From Mantamonas sphyraenae STR306 (lineage: Eukaryota > Protista > CRuMs): a DNA stretch of 64,000 nucleotides. Shown in pieces: positions 20,393 through 52,556 of this stretch. Where the stretch lies: contig JAPMXV010000052.1 of NCBI GenBank assembly GCA_026936335.1, positions 248,001 through 312,000 of the forward strand, written 5' to 3'. Both the position numbers and the translations under genes were made by a program. Numbering within the stretch: the stretch's first letter is position 1; each line of letters starts with the position of its first letter. A model generated the notes under the pieces. That model was not told where the DNA came from, made no database searches, and saw nothing but the letters and a program-made list of their open reading frames with translations.

Positions 20393-20399
20393 TTTTTTT
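20393..20399 (+). terminator. RNA polymerase III terminator (T7)
   Basis: Seven Ts 2 nt after the tRNA 3' end. Confidence 0.85.
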
Positions 20400-20676: not shown

Positions 20677-20885
20677 CCCGCCACTCCCTTCGCCTCCCAC
20701 CCGCCACTCCCTTCGCCCCCCCACCTGCCACTCCCTTCGCCTCTCACCCGCCACTCCCTTCGCCTCTCACCTGCCACTCCCTTCGCCTCCCACCCGCCAC
20801 TCCCTTCGCCTCTCACCCGCCACTCCCTTCGCCTCTCACCCGCCACTCCCTTCGCCTCCCACCTGCCACTCCCTTCGCCTCCCAC
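20677..20885. repeat. 23-bp minisatellite (CCCGCCACTCCCTTCGCCTCYCA), ~9 copies; ~6 copies at 25452-25592 in the other arm
   Basis: Directly visible. Confidence 0.9.
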
Positions 20886-21199
20886 CTTCCCCCCCCCTCT
20901 TCCCGCCTCAACCACCTTCATCCCCGGCTCGCTTGTTTACAGCACACCACACCACATTGGCTCATGTACCAGCTCCGCCTTTACCCACGCTCCTCCATCT
21001 CTCTCACCCTCCCCAGGCATACGCGTTCCACCCACCCGCCACACTCCACCCTTCCTGCATCCCATACGCCCTCTTGACTTCCACCCTGTGTCTCGGCGTT
21101 TGCCGATCCGTCCTTGTGCGTCCCACATGTTTCTTGATCTCCTCTGCTCCCGACGACGTCAACACCCAAAAAATCACTCTCCCATGTTCTACAGTATTT

Positions 21200-24100: not shown

Positions 24101-25186
24101 TCTGTAGCGATCTCTGTGAGCAGCAGCGACGGCGTGTTGCGCGCTGGCACTCTGTCGCGTGTGGCCTCGGCTGCAAATGGCTATCAGGTGGACTTTGCCG
24201 ACGTGCGCATCACCCCCACGGCTGGCACGTACACACTCGCCTACACCGCCAGCGGCCTGGAACCCACCACCAGCAGCGTCACGGTGATGCATGGACCCGC
24301 ACACACCCTCCGCTTTGTCCGCAACATGACCTTGTTCGTCGACAACCGCAACTCGGCGGAGCAGCCGTTCCCCGTTCAGCCCGAAGTCGAAGTGATCGAC
24401 ACAGCAGGCAACAGGGTCAACACATCGGATGTGCTCGTGCGCATCCTGGTGTCTCGGTACACACAAGGAGCCACGTACGAAAAGGCAGCTCTCGATGGAA
24501 TCGCCAATTTCACCGGCGTCTTCTACACCGGTCCCTTTGGCGACGCGGTCGACGTCACCGTGATTGGCAACGTGATCAGCAACGACGCGCAGTTGTCTCC
24601 GCTCGTGCTGCCCAAGGCCCTGACCTTCATCACATGCCCCGAGTACCGACCCAGCTCCGAGCCCACCGGCACCAAAGACTCGTGTTTCTGCTCGCCAGGT
24701 CACTATTCCATCACTCCACACTCGCCTTGCCTTGGCTGCGACCAGTTTGGCTACCAACCCAAACCGGGCCAGGATAAGTGTGAGCCTTGCCGTGCCAACA
24801 GGGACACCAACGGCATCCTCGGGGCAACCAACGCCAGCCAGTGTCTGTGTTCCGACGGCTTCTACGAAAACGCCTTTACCAATGGCGACTGCCAGATTTG
24901 CCCTGCTGGTGGCGTGTGCAGCCAGAGCGAGGATGGCGGCTACACAACCGGCACGGGCTACTTCAGCTTCAATCTGGCCGAAGCCAAGTTTGTGCGCTGC
25001 CCCAATCCGGACGCCTGCCTGGGTGGAGGCAACTCCACCTGTGCAGAGGGCTACCACGGTCCACTTTGCTCACTGTGTGACCCAGGATACGGCAAGCGCG
25101 GAACAACTTGCCACAAATGTGACGCCGAGGCGGTGAGCTGGCTGTACGTGGTGGGCACCCTCCTGGCGCTCATCTACATCATGGCA
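21200..25186 (+). pseudogene. Truncated, frameshifted large cell-surface protein (beta-sandwich/Ig-like repeats, Cys-rich ephrin-receptor/GCC2-like repeats, first TM helix)
   Basis: Repeated V/T-rich units (D.GGN, F..L, PGxY), then CSPGHYS..C..C...YQP..GQ..C..C and C.EGY.GPLC..C..GY. Frameshifts at ~21360, ~22340, ~23630. Cut inside the TM segment (LIYIMA) at the inverted-repeat arm; no clear start or signal peptide. Confidence 0.75.
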
Positions 25187-27511: not shown

Positions 27512-29391
27512 ATGTCCCAAACGCGCGCCATGATGGATGAAGACGCGATGGATGGGGCGTCTGTGCAAGATGGCCCCTCCGTGCACGCGACACCAGCACC
27601 CGAACGCATCTTGACCACAACGAAGCACGCCACGCCGGAAGACTCCACCCCGTCCACCCTGTCCGACGACTTTGCACAGTACAGCGGGTAAGAACAACAG
27701 CAGCCACCCATCCCCCTCCCCACCCCACCCATCCCCTGTACTGACATAACCAGGGTGACCCGTGCGCGCTGTGTGTTTTTGACAGGTCAGTCCCCGGCGA
27801 CCAGCACCAGCAGCTGGACGACGCAGCACAGGGTACCGCCTCACGCCAGAGAACACCGCCCTCTCGCACGGAGACACTGCTGTCACAGGTGCCAATGGAG
27901 GTGTGGCAGCGCATCATCCCCCGCCTGGACGCCGCCAGCGCCCTTGCCCTCTGCTCCATCAACAAACACATGGTGGACATGGGCGACCAGTACCAAGTGG
28001 ACAACCAGCCGCTGAGGAGCACCCTTGTGTCCGCATTGGGCGAGTTCGGTGGTGTGGTGGTCAAGAATGGCGACAAGCTGCACCAAGTGCCACGGCTGCA
28101 TCGCCTCGCAACACACACGGCCCTGTTTGAGCTGTTTGGGGAGAACAGCCTGCCTGAACGCATCCATGCAGAGGATCTGCCATCTCTGTGTGGACGCTCA
28201 CTGCACGCGCTGCGGTTCGTGCTGCGGCGAACGGAATTGGTCAACCATTCCTCCCACAAACTGAAGATGATGGTCCAGATCTGTGTGCCCTTCCGCGAGG
28301 CAACGTACGCCGTTTACAGGGAAGCCGGTGCCCCGCAAAGCCTTCTGCAAACCTGTAGGTTGAACGGCAGCATGGACGCGATCTACAACGGCGACACCGC
28401 GGGGTTTGACGATGCCACAGGACAGTTGGGTGATGCAGACTCCCTCGGACGAACACTCGCAGACGTGCCACTGTCCAACATAGCGGCGTACCTCGAGCAC
28501 GCTGGAGATGCGGTGCACTGCACAAACAATGCGTTGACGCAGGTGTTGGTGGGACACGGCGTGGCCGGTGTGGAAGAAGCAATGGCAATGGGACTGAGCG
28601 GCTGTGATGGCATGCTAGCCCGCGTTCCTAACGTGCTGCTGAAACACGAGTGGCAACCCTTGCTGCGCGTCTGTATGGCGGCAAAGGACATGTCTCTGTT
28701 GGAAGGCCTGGGAAGCGTTCTGAAGAACCGCTCACTCGTGGCGTGTGTGCTGTCCACGGTACCCGTGGGTACTCTGATCACGAGCACACCAGCCTGTGAT
28801 TTCCACCAGGCACTCGTTCTGGTGCAAGGTGAGGAGAAGGCCATGGCCACCCTTCGTCGTCACGCCCACAAACTGTATCTGGCAGCCCTGCAGGTTGTGG
28901 ACACGGGGGAATGGATGCTGGACACACCCCAGATCGCGTCGAAGCTGAAGGACGAAGGGTTGGCAAACCTGTACCGGATTCACCGTCATCGTGGTGCGAT
29001 TGGTCTGCTGATCCAGCGCAATGCTTGGCGGACGGTCATTGACATTGCAGATGCGAGGGATTTGACATCACAGCTGTCCATCCTGGGCATGGTGCTTCCA
29101 GAGGAGCACGTTGTCTCCTTCCTCTTGCACGCTGGAGCCCAATCGAAAACGCAGGCAAAGCATGCGTTGGCATGGGTGTTGGCACACCAGGAGGAGCAAC
29201 TGGATGACGACGCAGTTGTGGAGCTCTACAATGTGTGTCACCTCAAACAAGCGCTTCGTTTGCTGGTGGAGCGGGAGGCATGGGCGAAGGCCATTGCCAT
29301 TGCAGATCCAAGGGATCTGGTGGAGCAGCTGAAGAGCACACGCAAGGAGCTTCCTCAAGAGCATGCCATCAGATTCAACAAGCTCGCGTAA
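27512..29391 (+). CDS. F-box-like helical-repeat protein, paralog 1 (2 repeats, no C-terminal domain); intron 27688-27785
   Basis: GTAAG...ACAG intron keeps frame; LLSQVPMEVWQRIIPRLD...CSINKH F-box-like motif. Confidence 0.75.
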
Positions 29392-29879
29392 CGCCTCGCA
29401 ATCTGGGATGCCGTGCAGCGGGGACTACAATGAGGAAGAAGTTGGAACAACACAACGGCGCAGGGAAGCACCGACGGAATGAAAATGGCGTTGGATGATG
29501 GGATGACGCTGGATTGCAGTATGGAGGTGGGCGTACAGGTGAAATTCCGGCGGATTCTTGATCACTCGCTCGAATCCCAGCACATCGCGCCCCAGGGCAA
29601 TGGGGAAAGGGAGACTCATGGATAGGGGATTAAATGCATTAAATCCGTCGATGGGTGCGCTTGGGTTGTTTCGTGGGACACAATGGGTCGTTGTAGTGAG
29701 CAGCCACACCTCGCACGTCGGCGTGGTTTGCAGCCAGTGTGGGTGTTCCCAGAGAGGGGAAAGGCAGGGTTTGGTCGGAGACGACTGAGAGGGCAGAGTA
29801 TCAAAGATGAGGCCACTGTGCCAGCTCTGCCTTTGCCAACCGAAACCACACCCAACGCGACCACTGTGGACTCACATCA

Positions 29880-32800
29880 ATGTCCCACAAGCGTAGCACG
29901 ATGTCCAGAGACGAGGACAAGGGCGATGTGGATGGTGAAGAAGAGAACCCGTCCGTTGACGCCACCCCTGCGCCCAGACGCCAGCGGGTGGCCAGGATCC
30001 GCACTTTGGCAAAGCTCACCAGCCACCATACCGACGGCACACGGACAACCAGGTACGTAGCTCTGCCGCCACACATCCCCCCCCCCCCCCCACTCCACCC
30101 ATCCCCTGTACTGACATGGCCAGGGTGAACCCGCGTGCGCTGTGTGTTTTTCTGACAGGTCAGTGCCCGGCGACCAGCACCAGCAACCTGGCGACGCAGC
30201 ACAGGACACCGCCTCACGCCAGAGAACTCCGCCCTCTCGCATGGACACACTTCTATCTCAGATCCCGGTGGAGGTGTGGCAGCGCATCATCCCCCGCCTG
30301 GACGCCGGTGCCGCCCTTGCCCTCTTCTCCATCAACAAACACATGGTGGACATGGGCGACCTGTACCAAGTGGACAACCAGCCGCTGAGGAGCACCCTTG
30401 TGTCCGCATTGGGCGAGTCCGGTGGTGTGGTGGTCAAGTATGGCGACGAACAACACCGGGTGCCGCGACTGAACCGGCTCTACCTGAACCGGGCCCTGTT
30501 TGAGCTGTTTGGGGAGAACAGTGTGCCTGAACGCATCCATGCAAAGGACCTGTCATCTCTGTGTGGACGCTCGCTGCCTGTGCTGTACTGTGTGCTGCGG
30601 CGAACAACGCCGGTCGCCCACTTTGAGGACGAGGACGAGTACTTCGACCTGCGAAACGCCATCGAGGATTGTCTGCCTTTCGAGGAGGCATTGGGAGGCT
30701 TGTTGATGGCAGCAGGCGACCTGGAGTATGTCGCGGTATACAGGGACGTGTGGTCCGACATGGATGCGATCTACAATGGGGACAGCGGGAGGCAGTTCAC
30801 CCACGGGTGTTTGGGTGAGCCGGACTCAAAGGGACGCACACTGGCAGATGTGCCACTGTCCAACATCGTTCCACACGTGAATTATGTCATGGAACAGGAA
30901 GATGGGATGCTGGAGCACACGTTGAACGCACTGACGCAGGTGTTGGTCGGACACGGCCTTGCTGGTGTGCAGGAGGCAATCGCAATGGGACTGAGCGGCT
31001 GTGATGGCATGCTTGCATGCATTGCAGATGTGCTGCCAGAATCCGAGTGGCCAAACGCGTTGCAAGCAGTCTGTGAGTCGGAGGAGAACTTGACTACTCT
31101 GTTGGAGGAGTTGCGGCGTGTGCTGGACAACCGCGCACTGGTTTCATGTGTGCTGTCCACGCTTCCTATTGAAGCTCTGGTCATGAATGCACCAGCCGAT
31201 GCACTGCACAAGGCGCTCATCCTGGTGGAGGGCCGGGGGAAAGCCATGGCCACACTTGTCAAACAAGCCAAGCTGTTCTACGTGGCAGCACTGAGGGACC
31301 GGACCAAGGCGCAATGGATTGCCAGCACACCTCAAATCGTGTCACAACTCGACAACGATGCCGTGGCACAGCTGTATGGAAAGCATCGTCTCCAGCAACT
31401 TCTGGCTGTTCTGGTGGAACGGGAGGCATGGGAGGAAGTCATTGACACTGCAAGACCAGGGGATCTGACGGAAGTGCTTGACAGCATGGGCATGGTGCTT
31501 CCGCAGGAGCATGTGCTGCGATATCTCAAGCGTGCCCGAACAGGTGATAACGCTGCTGTGAAGTGGGTGCTGGACCAACACGGAGAACAGCTTGATGACG
31601 ACTCTGTTGCAGCCATGTACAGGGTATGTCCACACAAGGAAGCCGTTCGTTTGCTGGTGGAGCGTGGGGCATGGGAGGCGGTCATTGACATGGCCACACC
31701 TGATGATCTGAGTGTTTTCCTACGCGACAAGGGCATGGTGCTTCCGCAAGAGCATGTGCTGCGATTTCTCGAGCGTGCCCAAAGAGCAGAACACCGGCAA
31801 GCAACTGCTGCGGTGGGGTGGGTGCTGGTCCACCACGGGCAACAGCTGGATGACGACACCGTTGCGCACCTGGTCAAGACCTATCGACACAAGAAAGGCA
31901 TGAGTTTGCTGGTGGAACGGGAGGCATGGGATGTGGTCATTGACACGGCCCCACCTGGTGTTCTGAGTGTTTTCCTACGCGACAAGGGCATGGTGCTTCC
32001 GCAAGAGCATGTGCTGCGATTTCTCGAGCGTGCCCAAAGAGCAGAACACCGGCAAGCAACTGCTGCGGTGGGGTGGGTGCTGGTCCACCACGGGCAACAG
32101 CTGGATGACGACACCGTTGCGCACCTGGTCAAGACCTATCGACACAAGAAAGGCATGAGTTTGCTGGTGGAACGGGAGGCATGGGATGTGGTCATTGACA
32201 CGGCCCCACCTGGTGTTCTGAGTGTTTTCCTACGCGACAAGGGCATGGTGCTTCCGCAAGAGCATGTGCTGCGATTTCTCGAGCGTGCCCAAAGAGCAGA
32301 ACACCGGCAAGCAACTGCTGCGGTGGGGTGGGTGCTGGTCCACCACGGGGAACAGCTGGATGACGACACTATTGCGCACCTGTTCAAGACCTATCGACAC
32401 AAGAAAGGCATGAGTTTGCTGGTGGAACGGGAGGCATGGGATGTGGTCATTGACACGGCCCCACCTGGTGTTCTGAGTGTTTTCCTACGCGACAAGGGCA
32501 TGGTGCTTCCGCAAGAGCATGTGCTGCGATTTCTCGAGCGTGCCCAAAGAGCAGAACACCGGCAAGCAACTGCTGCGGTGGGGTGGGTGCTGGTCCACCA
32601 CGGGCAACAGCTGGATGACGACACCGTTGCGCACCTGGTCAAGACCTATCGACACAAGAAAGGCATGAGTTTGCTGGTGGAACGGGAGGCATGGGATGTG
32701 GTCATTGACACGGCCCCACCTGGTGTTCTGAGTGTTTTCCTACGCGACAAGGGCATGGTGCTTCCGCAAGAGCATGTGCTGCGATTTCTCGAGCGTGCCC

Positions 32801-35241
32801 AAAGAGCAGAACACCGGCAAGCAACTGCTGCGGTGGGGTGGGTGCTGGTCCACCACGGGGAACAGCTGGATGACGACACTATTGCGCACCTGGTCAAGAC
32901 CTATCGACACAAGAAAGGCATGAGTTTGCTGGTGGAACGGGAGGCATGGGAGACGGTCATTGACATGGTCACACCTGGTGCTCTGGGTGCGTACCTCGAC
33001 AGCAAGGGCATGGTGCTTCCGAAGGAGCATGTGCTGCGATTTCTCAACCGTGCACGACGACGTGATAATGACACTGCCGTGGAGTGGGTGCTGGTCCACC
33101 ACGGAGAACAGCTGGATGACGACACCGTTGCGCAACTGTTCAAGGCACATCGACACAAGAAAGCCATTCGTTTGCTGCTGCAACGGGAGGCATGGGAGAC
33201 GGTCATTGACATGGTCACGCCTGGTGCTCTGATTGCGTACCTTGACAGCAAGGGCATGGCGCTTCCGCAGGAGCATGTGCTTCGATTTCTCAACCGTGCA
33301 CGAGGATGTGATATCAACGCTGCCGTGGAGTGGGTGCTGGTCCACCACGGGGAGCAGCTGGATGACGACACTGTGGCGGACATCCACAAGGCTTATCCCC
33401 ACAAGGAAGCCATTCGTGTGCTGGTGGAACGGAAGGCCTGGGAGACGGTCATTGACGTGGCCACACCTGGTCATCTGAGTGCGTACCTTGACAGCAAGGG
33501 CATGGTGCTCCCGCAGGAGCATGTGCTGCGATTCTTCGAGCGTGCACGAGGTGATGCCGCCGCCGAGAAGTGGATTCTGGTCCACCACGGGGACCAACTG
33601 GATGACGACACCATTGCAGACATGCACAAGAGATATCGACACCAGGAAGCCATTGGTTTGCTGGTGGAGCGCGGGGCATGGGCGATGGTCATAGACAGTG
33701 CAAGACCTGGAGATCTGACGGAAGTGCTGGACAGGAATGGCATGGTGCTTCCACAGGAGCATGTGCTGCAATTCCTCGAGAGTGCACGGGGATGTGATAT
33801 CGCTGCCGAGAAGTGGGTGCTGGTCCACCACGCGGAGCAGCTGGATGACGACACTGTGACGCACTTGTACAAGAAATTTCGGCACAAGGAAGGTGTTCGT
33901 GTGCTGGTGGAGCGTGGGGCATGGGAGATGGTCATTGATATGGCCACACCTGGTGTTCTGGGTGCGTACCTACACAGCAACGTCATGGTGCTTCCGCAAG
34001 AGCACGTGCTGCGATTTCTCAAGCGCGCCGTTGATGAGAACGCCCGATCGTATGCAGCAAGTTGGGAACGCAATGATGCTGTGCTGTGGGCAGTGGAGCA
34101 GCACACGGCGCAACTGGAGCTCGATACCATACTCGAGTGCTACAGAAGCGACCCGGACGAACGGCTGTTGCCAATCCTGCTGTCCAAGGACGACTTTGAT
34201 GACGACCACAGGGCATTGTGGGTCCCATACGAGCTCAAGCGGCCGAGCGCACGAGCCAAATCCTTTCTGCTGCCAAGCGTGCAAGAACGCTGGCAACAGC
34301 AGATGAATCGATGTGCGAGCGTGTGCAGCGAGAGTGGGGCGGAGGCGTTTGTGCACTACGTGCGGCAGTGGATGAGCAGGGCAGTGAGGAAACAACCCTG
34401 CAACGACTCGGAGGTGATGGCAGTGGCCATGGAGGGGCTGGAGAACGAGGATGTGGTGCATGTGGGCAAGCTCGTGAACGCAGACGAGCTGGAGACGGGG
34501 CGGTGGTCAAAGGATCTGGCCACTGACGCAAGGTGGATGCAGCTGCTGGACATCGGGTTCCCTCTGAACGTGCTGGGCGTCATGCTGCCTCGAATGCAGG
34601 GCATCCGTAAGTACAGTGTTGAGCTGCACCGGCGCATCGTCCGTGGGCTCATTGACCAAGGAACGATGTTCGTGTTGCAGCAGTTGGTGGGAACCAGTCC
34701 AACAGCCCTGAAGGAAACATATGCGTATCTGTACGAATTGGACAGCTCGACGGCACTTGAGAAGCTGCTTGCCCTCCACGACGAGGTGGACAACGAGGTG
34801 TTGCTGGAGCTTCTGCTGCAGCACAAGGATCCGCAGGCCCTGGAGGAACTGGTGTCACGCTTCCCATTCATGGTGGTGACAAAAGGGATGTACGAGGCCG
34901 TGGGAGGCGAGAACCTTGGTGAGCAGACGCAGCAGAGGTGGGAACTCGTGAAGCAAGTCCACCAGGAGTACCATTCAGGACGGTGGACTTGGAGCGATTT
35001 GGCTCATGTGGTGCTGTCCCCGGGAGGTTCTGCCGATACGCTCATCCGTTGTCAAGTGCTGTGGGAATGTGGGCACAAGTTCACCACCAGCGACTGGCCG
35101 GATGCCTTGAGCACGGAAGGAGCCAACTTTCTGGCATCTCTGGGGATCAGTGTGTCTGGCACAGCAGACCTTGACGATGAGCTGACAAAGGAACTGGAAT
35201 GGCTGAGGGGTGTGTACCGTGCGTTCAAAATGAAGAGCTGA
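29880..35241 (+). CDS. F-box-like helical-repeat protein, paralog 2 (11 repeats of 80-85 aa); intron 30053-30158
   Basis: Phase-2 GTACGT...ACAG intron joins into the 1699-aa ORF; LLSQIPVEVWQRIIPRLD; repeated LLVEREAW..VID...GMVLPQEHVLRFL...WVLVHHGEQLDDDT. Confidence 0.85.
31700..32950 (+). repeat. Five near-identical 255-bp coding repeats
   Basis: Shadow ORFs at 31712, 31967, 32222, 32477 and 32732 with period 255. Confidence 0.95.
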
Positions 35242-35313
35242 CCACGCACCGCTCTGCCTCTGCCAAACCAAACCCCACCCCCCCCCCACCACCACCACTG
35301 TGAACACACATCA

Positions 35314-38300
35314 ATGTCCCGCAAGCGTTCCCTGATGTCCAGAGACGAGGACGAGGACGATGTGGCTGATGAAGAAGAGAACCCGTCCGTTGACGCCACT
35401 CCTGCGCCCAAACGCCAGCGGGTGGCCAGGATCCGCACTTTGGCAAAGCTCACCAGCCACCATACCGACGGCACACGGACAACCAGGTACGTAGCTCTGC
35501 CGCCACCCATTCTCCCCCCACCCCACCCATCCCCTGTACTGACATGGCCAGGGTGAACCCGTGTGCGCCGCGTGTTTTTCTGACAGGTCAGTGCCCGGCG
35601 ACCAGCACCAGCAACCTGGCGACGCAGCACAGGACACCGCCTCACGCCAGAGAACTCCGCCCTCTCGCATGGACACACTTCTATCTCAGATCCCGGTGGA
35701 GGTGTGGCAGCGCATCATCCCCCGCCTGGACGCCGGTGCCGCCCTTGCCCTCTTTTCCATCAACACACACATGGTGGACATGGGCGACCTGTACCAAGTG
35801 GACAACCAGCCGCTGAGGAGCACCCTTGTGTCCGCATTGGGCGATTCTGGTGGTGTGGTGGTCAAGTATGGCGACGAACAACACCGGGTGCCGCGACTGA
35901 ACCGGCTCTACCTGAACCGGGCCCTATTTGAGCTGTTTGGGGAGAACAGCCTGCCTGAACGCATCCATGCAAAGTACCTGTCATCTCTGTGTGGACGCTC
36001 GCTGCCTGCACTGTACTGTGTGCTGCGGCGGACAACGCCGGTCGCCCACTCTGAGTACGACGAAGAATACGACGACCTGCGGGTCGCCATCGAGGATTGT
36101 CTGCCTTTCGAGGAGGCATTGGGAGGCTTGTTGATGGCAGCAGGCCGGGATTATGACGCGGGACACAGGGACGTGTGGCCCGACATGGATGCGATCTACG
36201 ATGGGGACAGCGGGAGGCAGTTCACCCACGTGTGTTTGGGCGAGCCGGACTGGATGGGACGAACACTAGCAGATGTGCCACTGTCCAACATCGTTCCACA
36301 CGTGAACTATGTCACGGAAGAGGGGGGTGGGTTGCTGGGGCACACCTCGAACGCACTGACGCAGGTGTTGGTCGGGCACGGCCTTGCTGGTGTGCAGGAG
36401 GCAATCGCAATGGGACTGAGCGGGTGTTGCGGCATGCTTCGTCTGATTGTCGAAATGCTGCCAGAATCCGAGTGGCCAAACGCGTTGCAAGCAGTCTGTG
36501 AGTCGGAGGAGAACTGGACTACTCTGTTGGAGGAGTTGCGGCGTGTGTTGGACAACCGCGCACTGGTTTCATGTGTGCTGTCCACGCTTCCTATTGAAGC
36601 TCTGGTCATGAATGCACCAGCCGATGCACTGCACAAGGCGCTCATCCTGGTGGAGGGCCGGGGGAAAGCCATGGCCACACTTGTCAAACAAGCCAAGCTG
36701 TTCTACAAGGCAGCACTGAGGGACCGGACCAAGGCGCAGTGGATTGCCAGAACAACTCAAATCGTGTCACAACTCGCCAACAATGCCGTGGCACAGCTGT
36801 ATGGAAGGCATCGTCTCCAGCAACTTCTGGCTGTTCTGGTGGAACGGGAGGCATGGGAGAAAGTCGTTGACATTGCAAGACCAAATGGACTGACGGCACT
36901 ACTTGACAGCAAGGGCAGGGTGCTTCCGCAGGAGCATGTGCTGCGATTTGTCCAGCGTGCACGAGGTGATTGCGCCGCAGTGAAGTGGGTGCTGGTCCAC
37001 CACGGAGAACAACTGGATGACGACACCATTGCAAACGCATACAGGAAATGTCGACACCAGGAAGCCATTGGTTTGCTGGTGGAACGGATGGCCTGGGAGG
37101 AAGTCATTGACATTGCAACACCAGGGGATCTGACGGAAGTGCTGGACAAGAATGGCATGGTGCTTCCACAGGAGCATGTGCTGCGATTTGTCCAGCGTGC
37201 ACGAGCAGGTGACAATAACGCCGCAGTGAAGTGGGTGCTGATCCACCACGGGGAGCAGCTGGATGACGACACCATTGCAAACGCATACAAGGCACATCCC
37301 CACAAGGAAGCCATTGGTTTGCTGGTGGACCGGAAGGCCTGGGAGAAGGTCATTGACATTGCAAGACCAAATGGGCTGACGGCACTACTTGCCAGCAAGG
37401 GCAGGGTGCTTCCGCAGGAGCATGTGCTGCGATTTCTCAATCGTGCACGAGGTCATTGCGCCGCCGAGAAGTGGATTCTGGTCCACCACGGGGACCAACT
37501 GGATTACGACACCATTGCAGACATGTACAAGAGATATCGACACAAGGAAGCCATTGGTTTGCTGGTGGAGCGCGGGGCATGGGCGATGGTCATAGACAGT
37601 GCAGGACTCGGAGACCTGACGGAAGTGCTGGACAAGAATGGCATGGTGCTTCCACAGGAGCATGTGCTGCAATTCCTCGAGCGTGCAACACAAACATTTA
37701 ATTACGCTGCCGAGAAGTGGGTGCTGGTCCACCACGCGGAGCAGCTGGATGACGACACCGTGACGCGCTTGTACACGAAATTTCGGCACAAGGAAGGTGT
37801 TCGTGTGCTGGTGGAGCGTGGGGCATGGGAGATGGTCATTGATATGGCCACACCTGATGATCTGGGTGCGTACCTACACAGCAAGGGCATGGTGCTTCCG
37901 CAGGAGCACGTGCTGCGATTTCTCAACCGCGCCCTGCTTGAGAACGCGGCGTCGCACGAAACGAATCCGAAACGCAATGATGCTGTGCTGCGGGCAGTGG
38001 AGCTCGAGACCCTACTCGAGTGCTACAGAAGCGACCCTGACGAACGGCTGTTGCCAATCCTGCTGTCCAAGGACGACCACACGGCATTGTGGGTCCCATA
38101 CGAGCTCCAGCGGCCGAGCGCACGAGCCAAATCCTTTCTGCTGCCAAGCGTGCAACGACGCTGGCAACAGCAGGTGAATCGATGTGCGAGCGTGTGCAGC
38201 GAGAGTGGGGCGGAGGCGTTTGTGGACTATGTGCGGCAGTGGACGAGCAGAACAGTGAGGAAAGACCCCTGCAACGACTCGGAGGTGATGGCAGTGGCCA

Positions 38301-39109
38301 TGGAGGGGCTGGAGAACGAGGATGTGGTGCACGTGGGCAAGCTCGTGAACGCAAACGAGCTGGAGACGGGGCGGTGGTCAAAGGATCTGGCCTCAAACGA
38401 AAGGTGGATGCAGCTGCTGGACATCGGGTTCCCTCTGAACGTGCTGGGCATCATGCTGCCTCGAATGCAGGGCGTCCGTAAGTACAGTGTTGAGCTGCAC
38501 CGGCGCCTCGTCCGTGGGCTCATTGACCAAGGAACGATGTTCGTGTTGAAGCAGTTGGTGGGAACCAGTCCAACAGCCCTGAAGGAAACATATGCGTATC
38601 TGTACGAGTTGGACAGCTCGACGGCACTTGAGAAGCTGCTTGCCCTCCACGACGAGGTGGACAACGAGGTGTTGCTGAACCTGCTGCAGCAGCACAAGGA
38701 TCCGCAGGCCTTGGAGGAACTGGTGTCACGCTTCCCATTCATGGTGGTGACAAAAGCGATGTACGAGGCCGTGGGAGGAGAGAACCTTGGTGAGCAGACG
38801 CAGAAGAGATGGGAACTCGTGAAGCAAGTCCGCCAGGAGTGCCATGCACACCAGGGGAGTAGGAGGACATTGGCTCGGAATGTGCTGTCGGGTGGTTCAT
38901 CTCATACGCTCATCCGTTGTCAAGTGCTGTGGGAATGTGGGTACAAGTTCAGCAACAGCGACTGGCCGGATGCCTTGAGCACGGAAGGAGCCAACTTTCT
39001 GGCATCTCTGGGGATCAGAGTGTCTGGCACAGCAGACCTTGACGATGAGCAGACAAAGGAACTGGAATGGCTAAGGGGTGTGTACAGTGCGTTCAAAATG
39101 AAGAGCTGA
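35314..39109 (+). CDS. F-box-like helical-repeat protein, paralog 3 (5 repeats); intron 35487-35586
   Basis: Same 173-nt first exon, same intron phase and same C-terminus (..AFKMKS) as paralog 2. Confidence 0.85.
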
Positions 39110-42145: not shown

Positions 42146-42592
42146 GGGTGGATGGAGGGTGATTGGAGGGTGGGTGCTTGTATGAATGATGACTGTGTCA
42201 GGTTGAGTGTGGTTTGGGGTCTTGTACGGGGTGTGGTGTTGGTCGTTTGGTGAGTGGAGGGGTGTGTGTGGGTTCACTGCCGGGCATGAGGGTGCTTTGG
42301 AGGTGGAGACACAAGGATACGCGTGCGTCCAAGGTGTATGCACCTGCTCGGACTTGTCTGCCGCTTCTGGGAGTGCATGCTCCAGTGGTTGCTCTGAGAG
42401 GGGGTGGGGTGAGCGTCCTCCTGCTCTCCCCCTGCATGCAAACCGCAGTCTATTACGGCATCCATTCCCTTCTATTGGCTCTCAAGGCAGCTTCAATTGC
42501 AGAGAGGGGGAGAGGGGAGAGAGGAGAGAGCATGAGCACAAGAGCGACCAAAACAACTTTCCCTCCCCCACCAATCGCACACAGAAAGAGAG

Positions 42593-45077
42593 ATGACAGA
42601 AGCTGGGGCCCTGTTGCAACTATGTGGAGAAGAGGGGTCGGTGGAGGAAGTGCGTGAAGCACTTCGGAGAGGGGAAAACCCAAACGAGGCAGAGAGGGAA
42701 ACGGGAATCACGTGTTTGATGCGGGCATGTCGAGCGGGCAGAGCAGACAAGGCATGGGTGCTTTGCGCCCACGGGGCAGAGGTGGAGGCGGAAGACACAG
42801 AGGGGAAGTGTGTGATGGAGTACGCAGTGGATGGGAAGCACCACGAGTGTGTGTGGGTGCTGCGGGAATTTGGGGCAAGGCCAGGGCGGGTGGAGTTTGG
42901 GTGGGAGAGGAGTGCAGTTTTGGCAAGTGGGGAGGCGGTGTGGGAGAAAGGGGAGGAAGGGAGGGAGTGGCTGAAGGAGGAGTGTTTCGGGAGAGGGAAC
43001 GGGTTGGAACGACGGGTGGTGGGGTGGCAGGAAGAGATGCACTTTGCGGTTGAGGAGGAGGCGGATATGTGTGTGGAGATGGCTCTGCTTGTGTTTGAGG
43101 AGATGGGTGGGCCACGGGGAGGAGTGCGACGGGTGGCTGAGTGGCTGACTGTGTGTTCAAGCGGTGGGAGGAGAGTGGACGAGATGATCTTGTCGGCAGC
43201 GGAAAAGGGTGATGCGAAGCTGTTGAAGCAAGGACTGGAGACACTTCGACATGAAGGGGAGTGGAGATTACATGTTTCAAGGGCGATGGTGACTGCAGCG
43301 CGGTATGGGCATGATGAGTGTGTGATGGAACTTCTGAAGGCAGGAGGCGAATTGAAGTGGAGCGATGAAGACGGAAGAACAGCGTTGCACTGGGCAGCAG
43401 CTGGTGGACATGTGTCCGTGGTTATAGTTCTGGTGGCAACAGGGGCAGAAGTGAACGTGCAGACAACTCAGGGGGATACTGCATTGATGATGGCAGCAGC
43501 TGGTGGACATGTGTCCGTGGTTATAGTTCTGGTGGCAACAGGGGCAGAAGTGAACGTGCAGACAACTCAGGGGGATACTGCATTGATGATGGCAGCAGCT
43601 GGTGGACATGTGTCCGTGGTTAAAGTTCTGGTGGCAACAGGGGCAGAAGTGAACGTGCAGACAACTCAGGGGGATACTGCATTGATGATGGCAGCAGCTG
43701 GTGGACATGTGTCCGTGGTTAAAGTTCTGGTGGCAACAGGGGCAGATGTGAACAAGGAGACACAGGATGGAGAGACCGCATTGACAATGGCACTTTGGAA
43801 AGGGCACCTGGCTGTTCTGATAGTACTCCGTGCTGCAGGAGCTGACATTGAATTGGTCGATGAAAGCATGCGCACTCTCCTCATGAGGAGCATTATCTCT
43901 GTGCGTCCACGAAACAGCATCCCCACCCTCATCCTTGTCGGTGCGAACGTGAACGCTCGCGACTCCACTGGTCTCACCTCCTTGCACTGTGCCTGCATCT
44001 GTTTAGACTTGGGGATTATCATGATGCTTCTAAGTGCTGGTGTAGACCCACTGCTGACCACTATGGAGGGTATCACCCCGCTCATGGCACTGCTCTGGTC
44101 AAGCGAACGGGACGAGCGGCGGCTTCCAACGGAGCTTCCCAAACCCTCATGGTTTTGGACGGATTACTCATATGTTTTTCATGATAGAATCCGTTCCTTG
44201 TGTCTCCAGCTACTCGACGCAGGTGTGGATCCAACTGTGACGGACAATACGGGTCGCACCGCGTTGCAGTACACCAGAAATCTAGAGCTGCTGCAGCGCA
44301 CTATCCTCTCCGCAAACATCAATGGTGATGCAGCCTTGGTCCCTCAATGGTCTCAACACTGGTCGATGACACTGGCAACGACTGTGGAAGGAACGCGATT
44401 GAGTTGGAGTGTCGGATGGCACGGAGGTTCGAATGGCCAAGGAGCAGCATCGGGGAGGATGACGAGAGCAGGGGATGCCACGTGCTGCCAGCGTCACTGT
44501 TCAACTTGATTGTGCTGCGTATGATGGCATTGCGCGGAGACAAGCATTCAGGTTTGGAGATGAATGTGCTGAGAGTGGGGCGGATGGACGGGAAAGACTG
44601 GCATGAGCAGGTTGTGCTGCACCACGAGCCACTCTCGAAGCACATCGATGTGTACGCATGTGCAACGGATTGGCATCACGCTGGAGGCAGGCGCAATGTG
44701 TTGAAGAAGGCTCTGGATGAGGTAGAGGAAGTGGTGAAGAGCGTATGCGGGAGCAGTCTTTTGGCTGGTCTGGGAAGGCAGCTGCGATGTGTGGCTGTGT
44801 GTCCGGACTGTCTGAAGGGAGGGTTGAATGCTGTGGAGATGGATTGGAGCAGGCATTCGATGCCAAGTGTGGCGGCATTGCGGGGTGGGAGCGGCGAGGT
44901 GGAGGGCAGCTGCGGATTTGAAGGGAACAACACGACGATATCGAGCGCAACGCTGCTGTTTGGACAGGAGTTGAATGCAGATGCACCGTGGGTACATTCG
45001 AGGAGTCTCCTGTTGATCGGGTGTGGGATGTTTGACGACATGCAGGACCTGGATGTGGAGCATGAACGAGTGGCGTA
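42593..45077 (+). CDS. 5' part of an ankyrin-repeat / COR-B-like / CHAT gene, interrupted at 45077; frameshift at ~44343
   Basis: Ankyrin repeats (GRTALHWAAAGGHVSVV..., 99-bp units 43380-43780); LVP/SM, LPASLFNLIVLR and VCPDC resemble the Roco COR C-lobe; DLDVEHERVA resembles a CHAT N-terminus. Confidence 0.7.
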
Positions 45078-45228
45078 CTGTCCTTCGCAAAACACCTCGC
45101 CTTCGGCTGAAAAACGCTTTCGCGTCAGTCTGAATGCGACGTTGGTTGTGTCTGCGAAGTATGTATCAAGTGAACCCATTGCTAAGGGTTCATGTGCATG
45201 GCTTGGTCCGTGGAGCTCGTGTGGCGGA
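45078..45228 (-). ncRNA. Candidate omegaRNA scaffold (right end of the element)
   Basis: Between the Fanzor stop and the element end: 7-bp hairpin 45171-45192 and long stem 45083-45159 topped by ACGC-GAAA-GCGT (GNRA loop on the minus strand). Confidence 0.55.
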
Positions 45229-48200
45229 TCAGCTGGATCGCGCTCCTTGCAGGTGAGCTGGTCGGCATCCGCGAGTGGCATAGCTGAACACAATAAATGC
45301 AAAGTTCAGGCAGCTGTTCTCGTCTCGTTGGAAGCATCGCTTTCGTGCGGTAGCTCGCGAGAGCATCTGGCGCAAAACGCCAGACGCCGAACAGCAATGC
45401 AGGGCACCGCTGGGGCAGTGAGGGCAGATCTGGTAGCGGCCCAGAGGGGATGTAGAGCCCATCGTGCCGTCGAACTCGAGGTCATGGGATCCACAGCCGT
45501 GTGAATGCCGTTTTGACGTCCGAAACTCGTTCACCCGGAGCACGAGCGTGTGTCTGCTCAGCTGGGTCATGGTGTTGTTGAATCCCCCGCTTTCGCCTCT
45601 CCATGTCACCTTGCCTCCGACATGGATGACGGGCCTGACCTTGCCCTTGACGGTCGTCAGCTGGGCGTTGTGGTGGAGCTGCTGCCCAAGGCGCCGGCCT
45701 TGAGCTTTGTGTATGTGCTTGAATTTGGCGGTCGCATCGCCTCCCTTCAAGCGCGTGTGGCGTGCAGACGATCGTGTGTGATTGTCCACTTTCGCCTGTT
45801 GGTGTGGGATGCTTGGGGCCTTAAAGTACGTGCCGACTTGGACGAGGGATCCGCAGTCGTTGTGCACATGCCCTGAGTCAAAATGGACTGCCACCGTCGT
45901 CGTCTCTCCCTTGCCAGGGTCAGAGCACGCCAGGTTGTGGTTGGACAACAGCTGAACGGTCTGTTCGAGTTGTTGTTGACCCACAGGCGGCCGGAGCCTG
46001 CTCGCCTGCATCTCCCCGTGACACGGTTCTCCACGCGCACGCGTGTCTTTTGGCATCGGCGCTTGCTTCTCTCCCAGTAGCTCGATTTGTTCCAGTGCCA
46101 GCTCCTTCGCCCGTTCCATGCCCACCAGTTGGACCAGGCCGACGAACATGGCGAACTTGATGGCAAGCCGCTGCTCTCTCGCGGGTGCCTTCTTTCCTTT
46201 CACCTTGTTCAAAGTCTCATTCCACGTCTTGATGGCATAGTAAGCATACGCCAATGACCTCGATGAGGGCAGAAGCAGCTCGAGCAGCGAAAGGTCGATG
46301 ACTAGAGCATCGGTGCTGCTCGCTGCTGTGTCTTCTGCCTCTCCCCCATCCCCTGCCTCTGCCTCTGCCTCTGCTTGACCTTCACCTTCGCCATCAGCCT
46401 CTCCCCCATCCCCTGCCTGCATCTCCCTTCCACACTCAGCCTCGCCTCCACCGCCTCCGTCCCCCGCCTGCGCCTGCGCTTCCTCGCCAGCTGCCTCGCC
46501 TCCGTTCACTCCCCCATCAGCATTACCACCACCCCCTGCCTCTGTCTCTCCGCCATCAGCATCGTCGTCTCCACTCTCTGCCTCTCCTCCTCCTGCCTCT
46601 GTCTCCTCTCCTGCACGCTCGCCTCCACCGCCCGCAGCAGCTTCTGCTGTGTCCGTTCCTCCGTCTCCGTGCGCCACTGCGTCATCGCCTGTTTCACTGA
46701 CATCTTCTCCTGCTCTGTCGTGTGTGCCAGCCTCCAGGAGCAACTGCTGCACTCTTGTCTTTTGGGAACGCCAGAACGCTCGCATGATGGCGGCTGGTTG
46801 GTCCTTGATAGCGTACGCACACGCTTTGAGGGAGGTGCCCGCGATGCTCAATGTCCCTGTGAGACGGTGCAAGCTGTCGTTGTGGGACAACACAGCGCTG
46901 CCAAACAAAAATGCCAAGGACGGCGCTGCCTTTGCCCGTGCATCTTGGTAGGCCTGCGCAACGCTGTTGCCGAACACATCCCTTGCGGAAAACTCTGCCA
47001 AAAGGTCACAAACCCGGCCCTTGACCCGTGCACAGTACGACGTGGTCTCTGTCGACCCGGCTTCGGACCACGTGGCGACCGCCTCGGCAAAGTCTTCGTT
47101 CCGACTGCCTGGCTTCAGCCTCGGCAGGCCCAGTTTGCGCAGCTCACCTAGGATGCCGTCGTTGTTGGTGGTGTCCTCTTGTTGCTGGAGCGTGGCTCGT
47201 GCGAGATGCTCAATCGCACGACGCATGATTGTTGGAGTGATGGACACAGACGCACAGAGAGACCTTGCCTTCTGTGGAAGCCCTGTTGTTTGCCCTTCAG
47301 CATGTGCCTTGGCGATGTGTGTCCACGTTTGCAGGGTAGCAAGCGACCCTGAGCCCGAGAACACCTTTTTGCCGATCCCCAAGTCCATCATCTTTGCCAA
47401 CACCGTCTTCTTGTCGAATGTGGAAGTATCCAGACCCGCACGAGCAGACCAGCGCATGCCTATGTTGTCGAAGCGCGTCTCAATGTCCCCACAGTCCATC
47501 TCCCAGTCCTCGGCCAGCCACTCGGACACAATCCGTTTGCCCACGTGTTGAATGCCCGCCCCTTTCAGCGCGCCGAGCAGAGCATACCGGGTGGCATAGC
47601 CCTTGAACTCCCCAAAGAGTTCAACTGCACACTGTTCACTGTTGTAGCTCCTGAACTGTCGCCACAAAAGGGCCTGGGCACTGAGTGGCTGTTGATGCAG
47701 GAATGGCAAATCGCCAACGTCAAGCAGCACAACGTCGTCATCCTCTGCGTCCTTGACCATGGCAAAGTTGTGTTGTCCAGCTGGTTGGTCCTCCTGCCCG
47801 CCTCCTGTGTCAGTTGTGCTTGTCCAGTCGCGCGTACGGGCCGCCCGCAGCACAAGCACATCGTTGCCCTCTCCCCGTTCGCCAACGATCCGTGAAAGGT
47901 TTCGAATAAACTCCCGCAGGAGGCCCTTATCCTCGTAGAACGCAATGCCAATTTCCCCCGACACCACGTCGTCTCCGTCTTCATCCCCTGGGTCACTCTT
48001 GTCGCCTCCCTCCAGTGCGTCGTCGCCATGATGATCTACGTCGTCCTCTTCCTCTTCCTCCTCATCTTCCTCTTCGTCCCCAGACCAGTCCACTTGCACA
48101 TAGTCACCATCATCTTCGTCAATTTCCTCTGGCACCTCTGACTCGTCTTCCTGCGCTGGTGCGGCCACAAGTTGCCTCCGCCGGCGCGTTGCCACCGTCC

Positions 48201-50945
48201 CTTCCGCCTCAGTCTCCCCCTCGGCGCCTGCACCCAGCTCACCCATTGCGATAGTCAAGCAACGGGTGGCAGCTCGTGCCATGCCATTGGCCATCTCGCC
48301 AAACACGAGCATCAACGCGAAGAGCGGGTCGGCGACGGCGTCAGCAGGGGTGGGGATGTTGAGCGTACTTGGCTTGGGGGAAATGCCCAGTACACTGCGC
48401 AGATGACGCGTCTCGTCGCTGCGCAGGTCCGCACTTAGGTAAGCATGGATGTAGGCCTCCACATCGCTGGACTTGAGGTTGTCCAGGCCCTTGCCCGCAT
48501 CTTGTTTCTCCTCCTTCTCCTGAAGAACCGTCTGACACGCATCCGCAACCTCCATGCTGCGTGCTGACTCTTTGGTAGCCAGCATCCGCTGCTCCTCATC
48601 CACCCCAAGCTCGATTTGGGAAGCAAGCAGAGAATCACGGAGATACTGGCCCACAGCGTCCGCAACAGAGTCGTTTGCACAGCCAAACATGGACAACACG
48701 GTGCCATCCAGCTCCAATCGCAGCCGCACCTTGCGCAGGAACGCGTCCTGTTGCAGGCGTCCGTGCAGGGTCTTCACCACGCTGCGCCCAAGCCGTTCTT
48801 GCATCATTTTCTCCTCATCGTCGTCGTGGTCACCAGCAACCCGTGTAAGAGGGAGGCTACAAAGGAGTTTGCTCGGCTCCTCGCCGCCCCCCTCGCCGGT
48901 GCACAGTACAAGCTTCTCGTCAGGCACATCCGGCTCGTCCATGCACTGTTCCAACGTCGCCACCAAAGCTGCATCCGAGGTGTAGAGGGTCCTCACCCGT
49001 GCAACTCGCCGCCTCGCCGCCTTGCCTTTTTGCCAACCCTTGTACCCCCGAGGGTGCTTTCCACGCTTGTTCTTCGACACTCTGCCCGGCTGGACACACT
49101 GAACGATCCCTTGGGCGTCTGCGCCGTTGATGCCGCTCAGCATCGCCAAGTTGTCACCGAGTTCGAATACGACGCTTGAGGACTGCCTGAGGCACACCAG
49201 GTAGAAGTGGTCCTTCGATGCACCTGTGATCTCGCTTTGCAATTGCTCCAGGTCGTTGAAGTTGAAATACGACCCGAAATGGCAACGAGCAGTGACGAGG
49301 GAGGAAAGAGACCGCACGCCAGCTCCTCCACTGTTGACCAACGCCCACAGTGCAGCAAACTCGTCGTTTTTCATCGACTGGAGCTTGTCACTGCGTGGCT
49401 GTGCCAGCTGCGCCGCGTTGCCGCGGAGCCCCAGCTGTACTTGGGTAGCCAGGTTCTTGCTGGCGGCCAGGACTTTGTCATCGTCCGAAGCCGCCTGCAC
49501 ATGATCATCTAGCCATGTGTACGTGTTGTTGTGACGAAGATCCAGCATACTGTCGAGCCAGGAGGACATGGAGTTGGCTGTCGCCCGACCTGGAGGGCCT
49601 ATCTCCTGCGCTGCCCGCTTGGCGATGCCAAGAGGCATGCGCAGCCAGCCATGTGCACCATCACCCCGTCCAGCGTACAGGGCCACCTTGGCTGCGTAGC
49701 TTCGTGCTTTGTGGGAGGTCAGTGTGCCTTCCCCGGTGCTTGCATCAATGACCCCCAGAACACAGTCGCAGAGGGGCGCCTGCCAATACAGGTCGCTGTC
49801 AATGCCAATAGAGATGCCCAAGTGACCATTCTCTTTGCTCAACTGGGCATGTCGTGCATGAATTTGGTCGTCTGCAGAAACACCATCTTGCCAAAGAAGC
49901 TCCACGCCATGCACGTCCAGCACGTCCCACTCCTCCTTGAACATGTAGTACATGTCATCCTTCATGACGGGTCGGGTCTCCTGTGCATGTCGCTTGGTGC
50001 TGTGAGCCTGCGTCACGGTCCTGGTAGACCGCAAACCTCCACCCGCGCAACTCACCTTCTGGCTGGAGTTTTCAAAGCGTTTTAGGGCATCGAGGAGGTG
50101 CTGAGCTCGCTTGCCGTCGTCCCATGCGTGAGGCTCCCCCGGAAACAGCAGGCCGTGTGAGTCAAGGGCTATTTCAACCCGCCATTCGATGTCCAGGCCA
50201 CTTGAAAGCAGGGCGGAACGAAACGCAAGCAGGTAATCTCGCAGTTTCTTCACTGCCGCCTTCACTTTCCCCCTCTGCACCTTCGTTGTGGACGACAGCG
50301 GCAAAACCTGGAGTGCATAGTCTAATGGAGGCGTGAGTGGGAGTGATTGGTGTGAGCAGGGCTATTCTCTTGGCAACCACAGGCTTCGGACTTACACATC
50401 GCGCCCAAATCACAAAGGATTGTAACGGTTTGAAAGGTGTCAACGTCCAGGACCCGTTCCACCATCTTCACTACGTCCCACGCCAGCAGCTGGGCTGGGC
50501 GCATCTTGCCAATGACCACAAGCTCGTCCTCGGAAATCCCAAGAGCATGTGGTTGCGACGGCTCCAGTGTGTCGCTCAACTCTTGCACCAAATTCCTCAC
50601 GCTCGTCTTCTCCTGCCTTGCTCGCTTGCGCGGGTACACTTTGCTCCACTCGTCGTCTTCAGAGATGTACTCGTCGTCCAGTGTCTTGAACAAAACTAGA
50701 CCAAAGGGCACATCTTGCAAGAAGGTGATCCGGTTAAGATCGGCATAGCCGAAGACGACACCGGGTACACCGAGGCCACTCTTCACAAAGGCTCTCAGGG
50801 CACGACGATGGCGCCTGGATGGCTTGGAGTCCGGTTGTGACACCGACAGAGAGGAGCCCAAAGCGGCACCCCACCCTTCGTCCAACTCCATTTTGCTTGG
50901 CCCCATTGCGCAAACCTGATGGCAACAACGCCCGGCGGTGCCCAT
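45229..50945 (-). CDS. Giant PIN(FEN1/XPG-like)-Fanzor/TnpB-like RuvC fusion protein, copy 2 (~1,880 aa); exons 50945-50396 and 50321-45229
   Basis: GTAAGT...TAG phase-1 intron 50322-50395 joins ILCDLGAM to YYALQVLP. PIN motifs IALDSH, SADD, GIDSDL, H3TH-like LYAGRGDG. RuvC CSDPG (45921), IHVGG, RVNEFRTSK (45528), HGC/CPHC zinc ligands, QRDENSCLNF (45324), terminal RPAHL. Start could instead be 50906 or 50891. Confidence 0.85.
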
Positions 50946-51024
50946 GTGGGTCAAGGACGCAGGGCGACATCAACAAACTACCAGTCGTGGCAGAGGGTCG
51001 GGCAAGGCACTTCATTGGACAATG

Positions 51025-51720
51025 TATGGTCCCCATCCAGGACCAGGGCAAAGAGGGCGCGCCCAATCGAAAACAACTATATACTTGCCACGGGGGAAGC
51101 TCGAGAGGACATTGGAAGGATGTGCATCGCCGTGGGTGCATGTGGCAACACACATGGACAAGCAAGGGATCTACGGAAGCGGGGATGTGTGCACAGCAGA
51201 TATCGTGTACACGGCATTGGACACGGGCAAGAGTCGGAAGCTGGTGGTCCTGAATGGGTGCAACAGTGCATGGATGGCACAATCGATGGTGAAGAATGGC
51301 ATTGCACAGGTGGCAATTGGGCATGTGGATCGTGTGCAGGATGAAGCAGCGCGGAACTTTGCCGAGGCATTGTATGTGAAGCTGTTTGCACAAGAGGCGA
51401 ATGTGAGAAAGTCGTTTGAGCATGCTCGAAGCAAATGTGTCACAGCGGTGCTCTTTGGCTGCCCAGAGGCATTGGAACAGAACATCCACTGGGAAGATGT
51501 GAAGGGCAAGGCAAAGAGAGAGGTGGTGAGTGTCCCTGATGGATGGAATGGGGTGTCCGAGGACACACGGATGTCAAGCAGCGGCAGCAGCAGCAGCAGC
51601 GGTCAAGTTCTTCAGGAGACAACCCCAACACCTGAGCCACACCCACACGCAGTCAAGGTATGCAAATGGTCCCGAATGGTGACGATGGAAGTATCCAATG
51701 GCAACTCAGAGAAGCAATGA
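51025..51720 (+). CDS. 3' part of the interrupted gene: CHAT (caspase/HetF-like) protease domain
   Basis: WVHVATH, LVVLNGCNS, VQDEAARNFAEALYVKL, SFEHAR match the CHAT consensus with His/Cys dyad positions. Confidence 0.75.
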   Translation, partial: YGPHPGPGQRGRAQSKTTIYLPRGKLERTLEGCASPWVHVATHMDKQGIYGSGDVCTADIVYTALDTGKSRKLVVLNGCNSAWMAQSMVKNGIAQVAIGHVDRVQDEAARNFAEALYVKLFAQEANVRKSFEHARSKCVTAVLFGCPEALEQNIHWEDVKGKAKREVVSVPDGWNGVSEDTRMSSSGSSSSSGQVLQETTPTPEPHPHAVKVCKWSRMVTMEVSNGNSEKQ

Positions 51721-51939: not shown

Positions 51940-52556
51940 ATGGGCTATTCCATCCGTGCAAAGAAAAAGAGGAAAGTCCGCACCCTGCGCCGCCAGGAGC
52001 TGCAAGAAAAGAAGCTCGAGGACGTCAAGAAGCTTGTAAAGCGCCTGCAGGTACAAAATCCGCCAGCCGCGCATTCCCCATCTGCCCGCCGCCACCATCC
52101 CATCCCGCGTCCTCTCTCTAACCACCCTCCCCCCTCCTCCGTCCCCTCCCCCCTCCCTGCACCGTGCCACCCCACAGGAGCACCGCGAAAAGGAAGAGCA
52201 AAAGACCGGCGTGGTCATGGGTACGCATTTCGGCCCGTCCCCCCCCCCCCTTCCCCCCCTCCCCCCCTTCCCCTCCGTGCTGACTCCCTCCGTCCCCCCA
52301 CACCCCCCTCCCGTCCCCCCACTCCCCAGCCGAAGGCGACCCAACCTCCTCCTCCTCCTCCACCTCGACAACAGCCGCCCGCCGTTCCACCCGCTCCACC
52401 GCGTCCACGTCCGACGATGCGGCCTCCTCCTCCACCATGGCCGAGGTCGCCAACAAGCTCTACCAACCCATGAGCGGCCGCCAATACAAAAAGAAGATCA
52501 AGGCCGCCAAGAAGCGCCGCATGCTCCGCAACGCACGCGGCAAGACGCTGCTCTGA
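51940..52556 (+). CDS. LLPH: LLP homolog-like small basic nucleolar protein; two introns (~52051-52178, ~52222-52329)
   Basis: MGYSIRAKKKRKVRTLRR N-terminus and YQPMSGRQYKKKIK C-terminus; GTAC...CAG introns. Confidence 0.6.

Follow-up and report, generated by a model that had tools for sequence, protein, structure and literature searches.

Fanzors have been portrayed as compact nucleases, about 600-700 residues long, in the service of a transposase. That size is given for most Fz1 proteins (Xu 2024, PMC11423790), and the Fanzor1 nuclease SpuFz1, from the element SPu-1 of Spizellomyces punctatus, works with a 75-nt scaffold joined to a 14-15-nt guide derived from the flank of the element (Saito 2023, PMC10432273). 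In a 2026 review, the 5' copy of the target duplication is read as part of the target-adjacent motif (TAM) and the 3' copy as lying within the scaffold (PMC13565253). Here we analyse a 64,000-nt stretch of the Mantamonas sphyraenae STR306 genome (assembly GCA_026936335.1, contig JAPMXV010000052.1, positions 248,001 to 312,000 of the forward strand; hereafter the window, in whose own numbering all positions are given), where an insertion of ~6.0 kb without terminal inverted repeats (TIRs) splits a CHAT-domain gene. Its spliced gene spans ~1,855 residues and would join a likely FEN/XPG-type 5' nuclease to a Fanzor nuclease; the whole may be read as a predicted RNA-guided homing element, and we regard the case for this combined reading as evenly balanced. 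The genome is eukaryotic, with spliced introns and with ODAD1 and EMC4 genes nearby. No transposase was found, and no second copy or paralogue occurs in the window; sister copies were studied through contigs from four runs of one study, which are not independent and may include the source sample. The contig comparison at 80% likeness covered two of the four runs (X2 and X3).

The element gene lies on the minus strand, and both of its introns, each bounded by GT..AG, are skipped in a contig of run X3 (Table 1). Read from the first ATG, the spliced frame continues for 1,855 residues without a stop; the start codon lies beyond the coverage of the spliced contig. The runs are labelled 'DNA?', and from the spliced contigs we infer that X3 holds RNA; this is supported by a 127-nt GT..AG intron at 52048-52174, within a small basic open reading frame (ORF), that is spliced at high depth in the same run.

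The C-terminus of the protein was compared with the Fanzor1 criteria of the Yoon preprint, namely DPG and the search pattern E-x6-[CH]xxC ... C ... RD-x5-N. It contains DPG at RuvC-I (D1626), a shifted glutamate (E1757), a zinc finger and the RD of RuvC-III (D1825), with the catalytic triad intact. E1757, the RuvC-II glutamate, occupies the Fanzor1 position, just before the zinc finger and 120-280 residues after DPG. The strict pattern fails; once HxxC is relaxed to HxxxC, it matches residues 1626-1831, and in this relaxed form it matches only one stop-free segment of the window. The Atlas places the protein at 0.97, with 21 of 30 matches in TNB/DUF8286 clusters (recognition 2583). On the strength of these motifs and this placement we assign the protein to the Fanzor type with high confidence, and Fanzor1 is likely rather than Fanzor2; RNA-guided, TAM-dependent DNA cleavage is predicted for it. 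Several results weigh against the assignment. The Pfam TNB match (E 0.14-0.49) stays below the cut-off, a search of 1.84 billion representatives gave no homologue at E <= 0.001, nor did a word search, a profile of 11 bacterial TnpBs aligns no better than shuffled sequences do (19.7 vs up to 20.5), and the single-sequence fold is unusable (a pLDDT confidence of 37). The Fanzor protein has no match in PDB sequences. Near its C-terminus, at 45237, the window lacks 3 nt that are present, as an in-frame insertion, in contigs of X1, X2 and X3 alike.

The head of the protein deserves separate attention. A weak lead from the Atlas pointed to the XPG/MKT1/Asteroid clan (0.91, low recognition). A profile built from 13 bacterial PolI 5' nucleases ranks residues 271-337 first among 558 sequences (E 0.13), and hhalign scores the pair at 36.4 (E 1.6e-4), where 40 shuffles reach no more than 28.3 and six other slices of the protein no more than 22.1. 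In a MAFFT alignment the aspartates and a helix-three-turn-helix (H3TH)-like motif near G390 fall in order: D237, D309, D310, D333 and D335 align to FEN active-site residues, five of the six active-site positions of Matelska 2017 (PMC5499597) align as Asp, and D379 is among the acidic residues of the domain. D157, placed by eye only, is a tentative candidate for strand 1. It is very likely, judging from these alignments, that the head contains a FEN-like domain, with predicted 5' nuclease activity. Other results count against it: the glutamate of the FEN EADD motif is replaced by S307, hhalign did not recover the H3TH part, and a fold made with FEN sequences as a guide is poor, with low pLDDT for the H3TH part too (pLDDT 49; best Foldseek E 0.0096, template-modelling score ~0.16). 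Such guidance makes the fold circular, and we gave it no weight as support. Searches of Pfam, NCBIfam, PHROGs and the PDB sequences all failed to detect the domain.

With the same element and the same ends, the FEN-like head might act on RNA, for instance by cutting the guide RNA out of a transcript, or might be a dead scaffold, with no role at a DNA break. The nearest Atlas clusters speak for this: they comprise MKT1 (named as an inactive endonuclease), Asteroid, FAM120A and virion host shutoff, the shutoff protein being one that is described as cutting mRNA, and one acidic site of the head is Ser. The Atlas lead is itself weak, though, and the domain has kept five well-aligned aspartates and an H3TH-like motif of the kind that binds double-stranded DNA. 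We consider an RNA-acting or dead head unlikely, although it survives better than the other alternatives weighed below.

A CHAT domain is interrupted at 45078. To the right of the element on the forward strand lies the coding sequence for the C-terminal half of a CHAT domain (Pfam E 0.009) with His and Cys motifs; this half scores 49.3 bits against our own profile, built from 41 non-redundant homologues that were retained out of 163 domains. Weak plasmid matches to this flank are annotated as CHAT in 14 cases out of 25; one of 9 plasmid loci (L038) was dropped as it lies in the wrong frame. A locus from an unpublished genome (L088) was excluded, and nothing claimed here depends on that genome. 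On the other side, a motif resembling the first strand and helix of CHAT runs precisely up to 45078; it ranks 17th of 92,373 window positions and first of the 250 in its own ORF. This N-terminal motif contributes nothing to the hidden Markov model score. A Fanzor-type element interrupting a CHAT gene, as originally predicted, is supported. The upstream part of the left host ORF may be COR-like; Pfam gave no match there.

Runs X1 and X2 hold a diverged second version of the ankyrin gene at 43825-44308 (35 differences in 175; 188 letters replaced by 191), and another joint lies at 44387-44389, in the stretch where the ankyrin ORF and the one downstream of it overlap out of frame with each other. 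The orphaned CHAT C-half occurs on a separate X3 contig (51093-51734) at a depth of 42 against ~9 just upstream, depth being unsuited to ranking; its transcription may be independent, or may start from a different copy.

Sister copies bear directly on the left end of the element, which the original prediction had set at 51024. Family B is colinear with the whole element both in a DNA-like X2 contig of 11,241 nt and in a contig of 5,477 nt from the spliced run X3, and its left flank is different. It crosses 51024 within the piece 50929-51048 (111/120 identity, 9 differences); of the 30 letters that follow, 26 agree with 51050-51079 (next best in the window, 19), and it continues for ~6 kb beyond, with no match to 51080-51450, the CHAT half, among the matches listed. 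A third contig, C, aligns over 50961-51047, again crossing 51024, and ends 35 letters after 51047; its agreement with 51048-51077 (20/30) is alone no better than the best chance match in the window (20). In a deletion variant found in X1 and X2, 50580-51076 is replaced by 32 letters that resemble 50580-50611 (20/32), and the sequence rejoins at 51077. Among the matches listed, 51024 thus has no breakpoint and three lie within 51077-51082: the comparison with other copies, which the original prediction had proposed as its own check, shows them ending elsewhere. Two side observations concern the same contigs. The deletion variant is without the promoter side and most of exon 1 and is possibly an aborted copy, and the depth of C (41 vs ~25) hints at about two copies, depth being no measure of copy number.

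Composition was tested with Markov models of orders 0, 1 and 2 trained away from the junctions. They place the left change point at 51091, 51091 and 51077, respectively, and moving the change to 51024 costs 7.0, 13.5 and 7.7 bits; the two-bit range of the order-2 estimate is wide (50982-51092). Scores of 10 held-out host windows run from 0.3 to 11.9 bits, and that of the segment 51025-51081 is -11.3. From the homology and the composition, the left end is likely to lie at 51077-51085, and CATA, which had been named as the TAM, is in that case probably internal to the element, the sister copies placing the left end ~55 bases further out. The best revised junction, a TACT repeat (45076-79 and 51082-85), is unproven; the TAM, being the letters outside the true left end, would be AGTA-like if TACT is the duplication. 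Under this revised left end the host would have lost, or never had, ~19 codons of CHAT, which is unexplained. In an assay designed around CATA, the target would probably be the wrong one.

The right end has fared better and is probably within a few bases of 45078, as had been claimed. All three Markov models put the right change point at 45073 (ranges within 45065-45081), the CHAT motif ends at 45078, and the last 83 nt of the element form a long stem (-30.2 kcal/mol, z -3.4, equalled in 0 of 300 shuffles), this 83-nt window having been picked after a weaker fold of 45078-45300 (z -1.9, 7 of 200 shuffles). The family B contig of X3 ends at 45161, beside the start of the stem, a weak hint of an mRNA end. 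No contig branches or has a loose end at 45078, and the X2 contig runs unbroken over 44806-45339. It appears that family B shares the right flank, or that its own exit is missing from the assembly; a shared flank is not what simple independent insertion predicts. Scans for the right-end pattern gave 23 metagenome matches, which on checking proved unrelated beyond the pattern, and 7 genome matches, which are prokaryotic. No related loci occurred in viral or genome contigs.

The predicted guide, by analogy the flank at 45056-45075 on the minus strand, stands to within a few bases under either left end, since the 3' copy of the duplication would lie in the scaffold and the guide would come from the flank at the right end. 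It has no second match in the window.

We turn to the original model as a whole, an element at 45078-51024 with a TA duplication and CATA as the TAM, in which paralogous CHAT genes would carry B and C at the same site, with ~54 nt of flank in common through co-conversion. The letters quoted for its junctions do occur: TA stands at 45076-45077 and at 51025-51026 in the flanks given, ACCATA does precede 51024 on the Fanzor (minus) strand, and CATA is the TAM of SpuFz1 (Saito 2023, PMC10432273). Removal of 45078-51026 joins the host frames without a stop, but 221 of 676 nearby cut pairs also stay open, and from 45076 two TA/TA pairs keep the frame, with partners at 51025 and 51082; the open frame therefore proves little for this junction. 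The TA is shared as claimed, but the full repeat there is the 3-bp GTA, shorter than TACT at 45076/51082. A multi-copy host locus, as indicated by the diverged ankyrin piece, also speaks for this model. The best argument for this left end is the usual CHAT spacing from Glu to His, 41-43 in 14 of 21 parsed homologues: hand counts give 42 at the original join and 23 at the TACT join, which tells against our revised end.

On the other side, the 19 residues that the original join adds are Pro/Gly-rich where homologues carry a helix. Family B has no piece matching 51080-51450 at 80% among the matches listed, though 27-nt pieces appear elsewhere; C stops near 51082, and the breakpoint of the deletion variant and the element-like composition of 51025-51081 are also at odds with this model. 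Nor does a TIR support it: none exists at either candidate left end (1,213 and 1,999 of 2,000 shuffles score as well), the only inverted match at the ends being a 5-bp TGTCC pair. We judge the original model improbable and a little weaker than that of an RNA-acting head. A variant with a 5-bp TIR and no duplication (45079-51021) falls together with the left end at 51024, and a subterminal direct repeat was not significant (532 of 2,000 shuffles as good). The CHAT profile cannot rank the 2,392 possible joins: the top one scores 52.1 bits and the original join 48.7 (rank 372), with 49.3 for the right half alone. The top-scoring joins, with a right end near 45140, were rejected, as their composition is 11-25 bits worse and the stem contradicts them.

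No element-free allele is among the joints listed for the contigs of the four runs, which weighs against a homing element, contigs showing presence and not absence. In the weakest alternative the copies are no longer mobile: a multi-copy host locus would have spread them as it underwent segmental duplication and recombination, the gene being an expressed and possibly domesticated family. This would suit the lack of TIR and transposase, the unbranched right end and the multi-copy flanks, but is very unlikely, as the unrelated left flank of B begins where C and the deletion variant also break and the right end splits a CHAT domain of the host.

If the element is an RNA-guided homing element, it could work as follows. 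The last ~83 nt and the downstream flank would form a guide RNA that directs the RuvC domain to the element-free allele, next to a TAM consisting of the bases that adjoin the true left end on its outer side; with TACT as the duplication, this TAM would resemble AGTA rather than CATA. Cut 5' ends, or flaps formed during copying, might be trimmed by the FEN-like head, and repair would then copy the element into the cut allele, as proposed for OMEGA systems (PMC13565253). That the head acts on DNA at the break is a tentative proposal, to which we give slightly less than even weight. Aborted copying would fit the 5'-truncated variant, which resumes at the same position on the left. More speculative, and in our opinion rather unlikely, is a natural cut-and-resect homing machine: a single protein of 1,850 residues would combine a Fanzor break with FEN/EXO1-type end processing, and a family without transposase or inverted repeats would spread by guided repair alone, also to new sites.

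A spliced Fanzor with an intact triad, about three times the usual Fanzor1 size, equipped with a 5' nuclease of its own and occurring as several diverged families, would show that eukaryotes evolved the nuclease-plus-exonuclease design that engineers build by hand. The role of Fanzors in their hosts would become testable, as names can be put to the guide, the target site and the two active sites. Literature searches gave reviews and engineering papers, and only one passing phrase possibly refers to a Fanzor-FEN fusion; supplements could list such proteins. By word count, neither XPG nor flap is mentioned in the article texts of Saito 2023 (PMC10432273) and Bao and Jurka 2013 (PMC3627910).

Table 1 Coordinates of the element, its junctions, its gene and the adjoining host features (window numbering)
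Feature	Position	Strand	Evidence or remark
Fanzor element, revised extent	45078..51081	-	Sister contigs, deletion variant, composition change points; exact bases not proven
Probable ends of element	Left 51077-51085 (best guess 51081); right ~45078		
TACT, right junction; candidate target duplication	45076..45079	+	Sequence; copy of 51082-51085; contains the TA of the original prediction
TACT, revised left junction; candidate TAM	51082..51085	+	Reads AGTA on the Fanzor strand; putative role
CATA and TA of the original prediction	51025..51028	-	Probably internal to the element
Disputed 55-nt segment	51027..51081	none	Common to sister copies B and C; element-like composition
10-bp palindrome and 6-bp inverted repeat	51055-51064 and 51027-51045		Both within the disputed 55-nt segment
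Exon 1	50396..50945	-	Start ATG candidates 50945, 50906, 50891; spliced contig covers 50396-50864
Intron 1, 74 nt, GT..AG	50322..50395	-	Skipped in X3 contig
Exon 2	50056..50321	-	
Intron 2, 75 nt, GT..AG, in frame, stop-free	49981..50055	-	X3 joint 49979-50055
Exon 3 through stop codon	45229..49980	-	1,855-aa spliced product from first ATG
FEN/XPG-like 5' nuclease domain (predicted), residues ~150-400	49599..50498	-	
Fanzor-type RuvC and zinc-finger region	45232..45930	-	DPG (D1626), G1727, shifted E1757, HxxxC..CxxC, RD (D1825)
Predicted omega-RNA scaffold	45078..45160	-	Long stem 45159-45083
Predicted guide, flank 3' of right end	45056..45075	-	By analogy with Saito 2023 (PMC10432273)
Host ORF left of element	44329..45078	+	Ends in CHAT N-terminal motif (45001-45078)
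Host CHAT C-half	51082..51480	+	His and Cys motifs
Ankyrin-repeat ORF upstream, other frame	42536..44506	+	Probably same host locus

Elsewhere in the window, a near-perfect inverted duplication of ~2.1 kb (19022-21151 and 25187-27293, 97-100% in the main arms), spanning 19022-27293 in all, brackets a 4-kb gene with ephrin-receptor-like/DUF7630 Cys-rich domains. A tandem array of ~217 copies of a 26-nt unit (1397-6881) adjoins a threonyl-tRNA synthetase-like gene, and further tandem repeats of ~450-480 nt, in 5-6 copies, lie at 15648-18357. Three tandem paralogous ORFs of 548, 1,708 and 1,188 aa (27745-39106) consist of repeats of ~80-85 residues and gave no convincing Pfam family.

Compared with described proteins, the head, as aligned by MAFFT, resembles FEN-like PIN nucleases (FEN1, XPG, Asteroid and the PolI 5' nuclease; Matelska 2017, PMC5499597) in its aspartates after strands 2 and 4 and before helix 5, in two acidic residues before helix 4 and in the H3TH-like motif. 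It differs from them in its fusion to a predicted RNA-guided nuclease in a mobile element, in the Ser that replaces the Glu of EADD and in being too diverged for Pfam. The phrase 'Fanzor flap endonuclease homologs (Fendons)', used for two large DNA virus contigs (PMC11071296), links Fanzor with flap endonuclease; unlike the present locus, Fendons are viral, and the text that names them gives no analysis and leaves a fusion unstated.

Among mobile elements, the Helitron2-type Fanzor elements CRe-1,2,3 of Chlamydomonas (PMC3627910, PMC10530073) share with this locus an intron-containing gene, the lack of long TIRs and the existence of 5'-truncated copies, the latter described for CRe-1 (Bao and Jurka 2013, PMC3627910 section 8). 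By contrast, no TTTT target or asymmetric inverted repeat was found here, and the accounts of CRe-1,2,3 consulted report no FEN fusion. As to other Helitron2 features, small palindromes near the left end are not significant (z -0.9) and Pfam found no HUH domain.

The analogy with SPu-1 on which the original prediction leaned fails on inverted repeats and on size: the present element measures 6 kb against 2.1 kb and is without the 30-33 bp inverted repeats of SPu-1 (PMC3627910, PMC10432273). The protein, at ~1,855 aa against 600-700 aa, has an N-terminal FEN-like domain and a gene with two introns, the spacing of its first zinc ligand is off by one residue, and CATA is probably not flank. A TA duplication, with CA kept on its 5' side from copy to copy, would be expected of SPu-1-like and Tc1/mariner elements; here TA occurs at 51025 and 51082, and sister copies run past 51025. 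Like SpuFz1 and SPu-1, the locus has DPG at RuvC-I, a C-terminally shifted glutamate, a zinc finger and RD, a short structured 3' end of ~80 nt beyond the stop codon and a single gene without a transposase.

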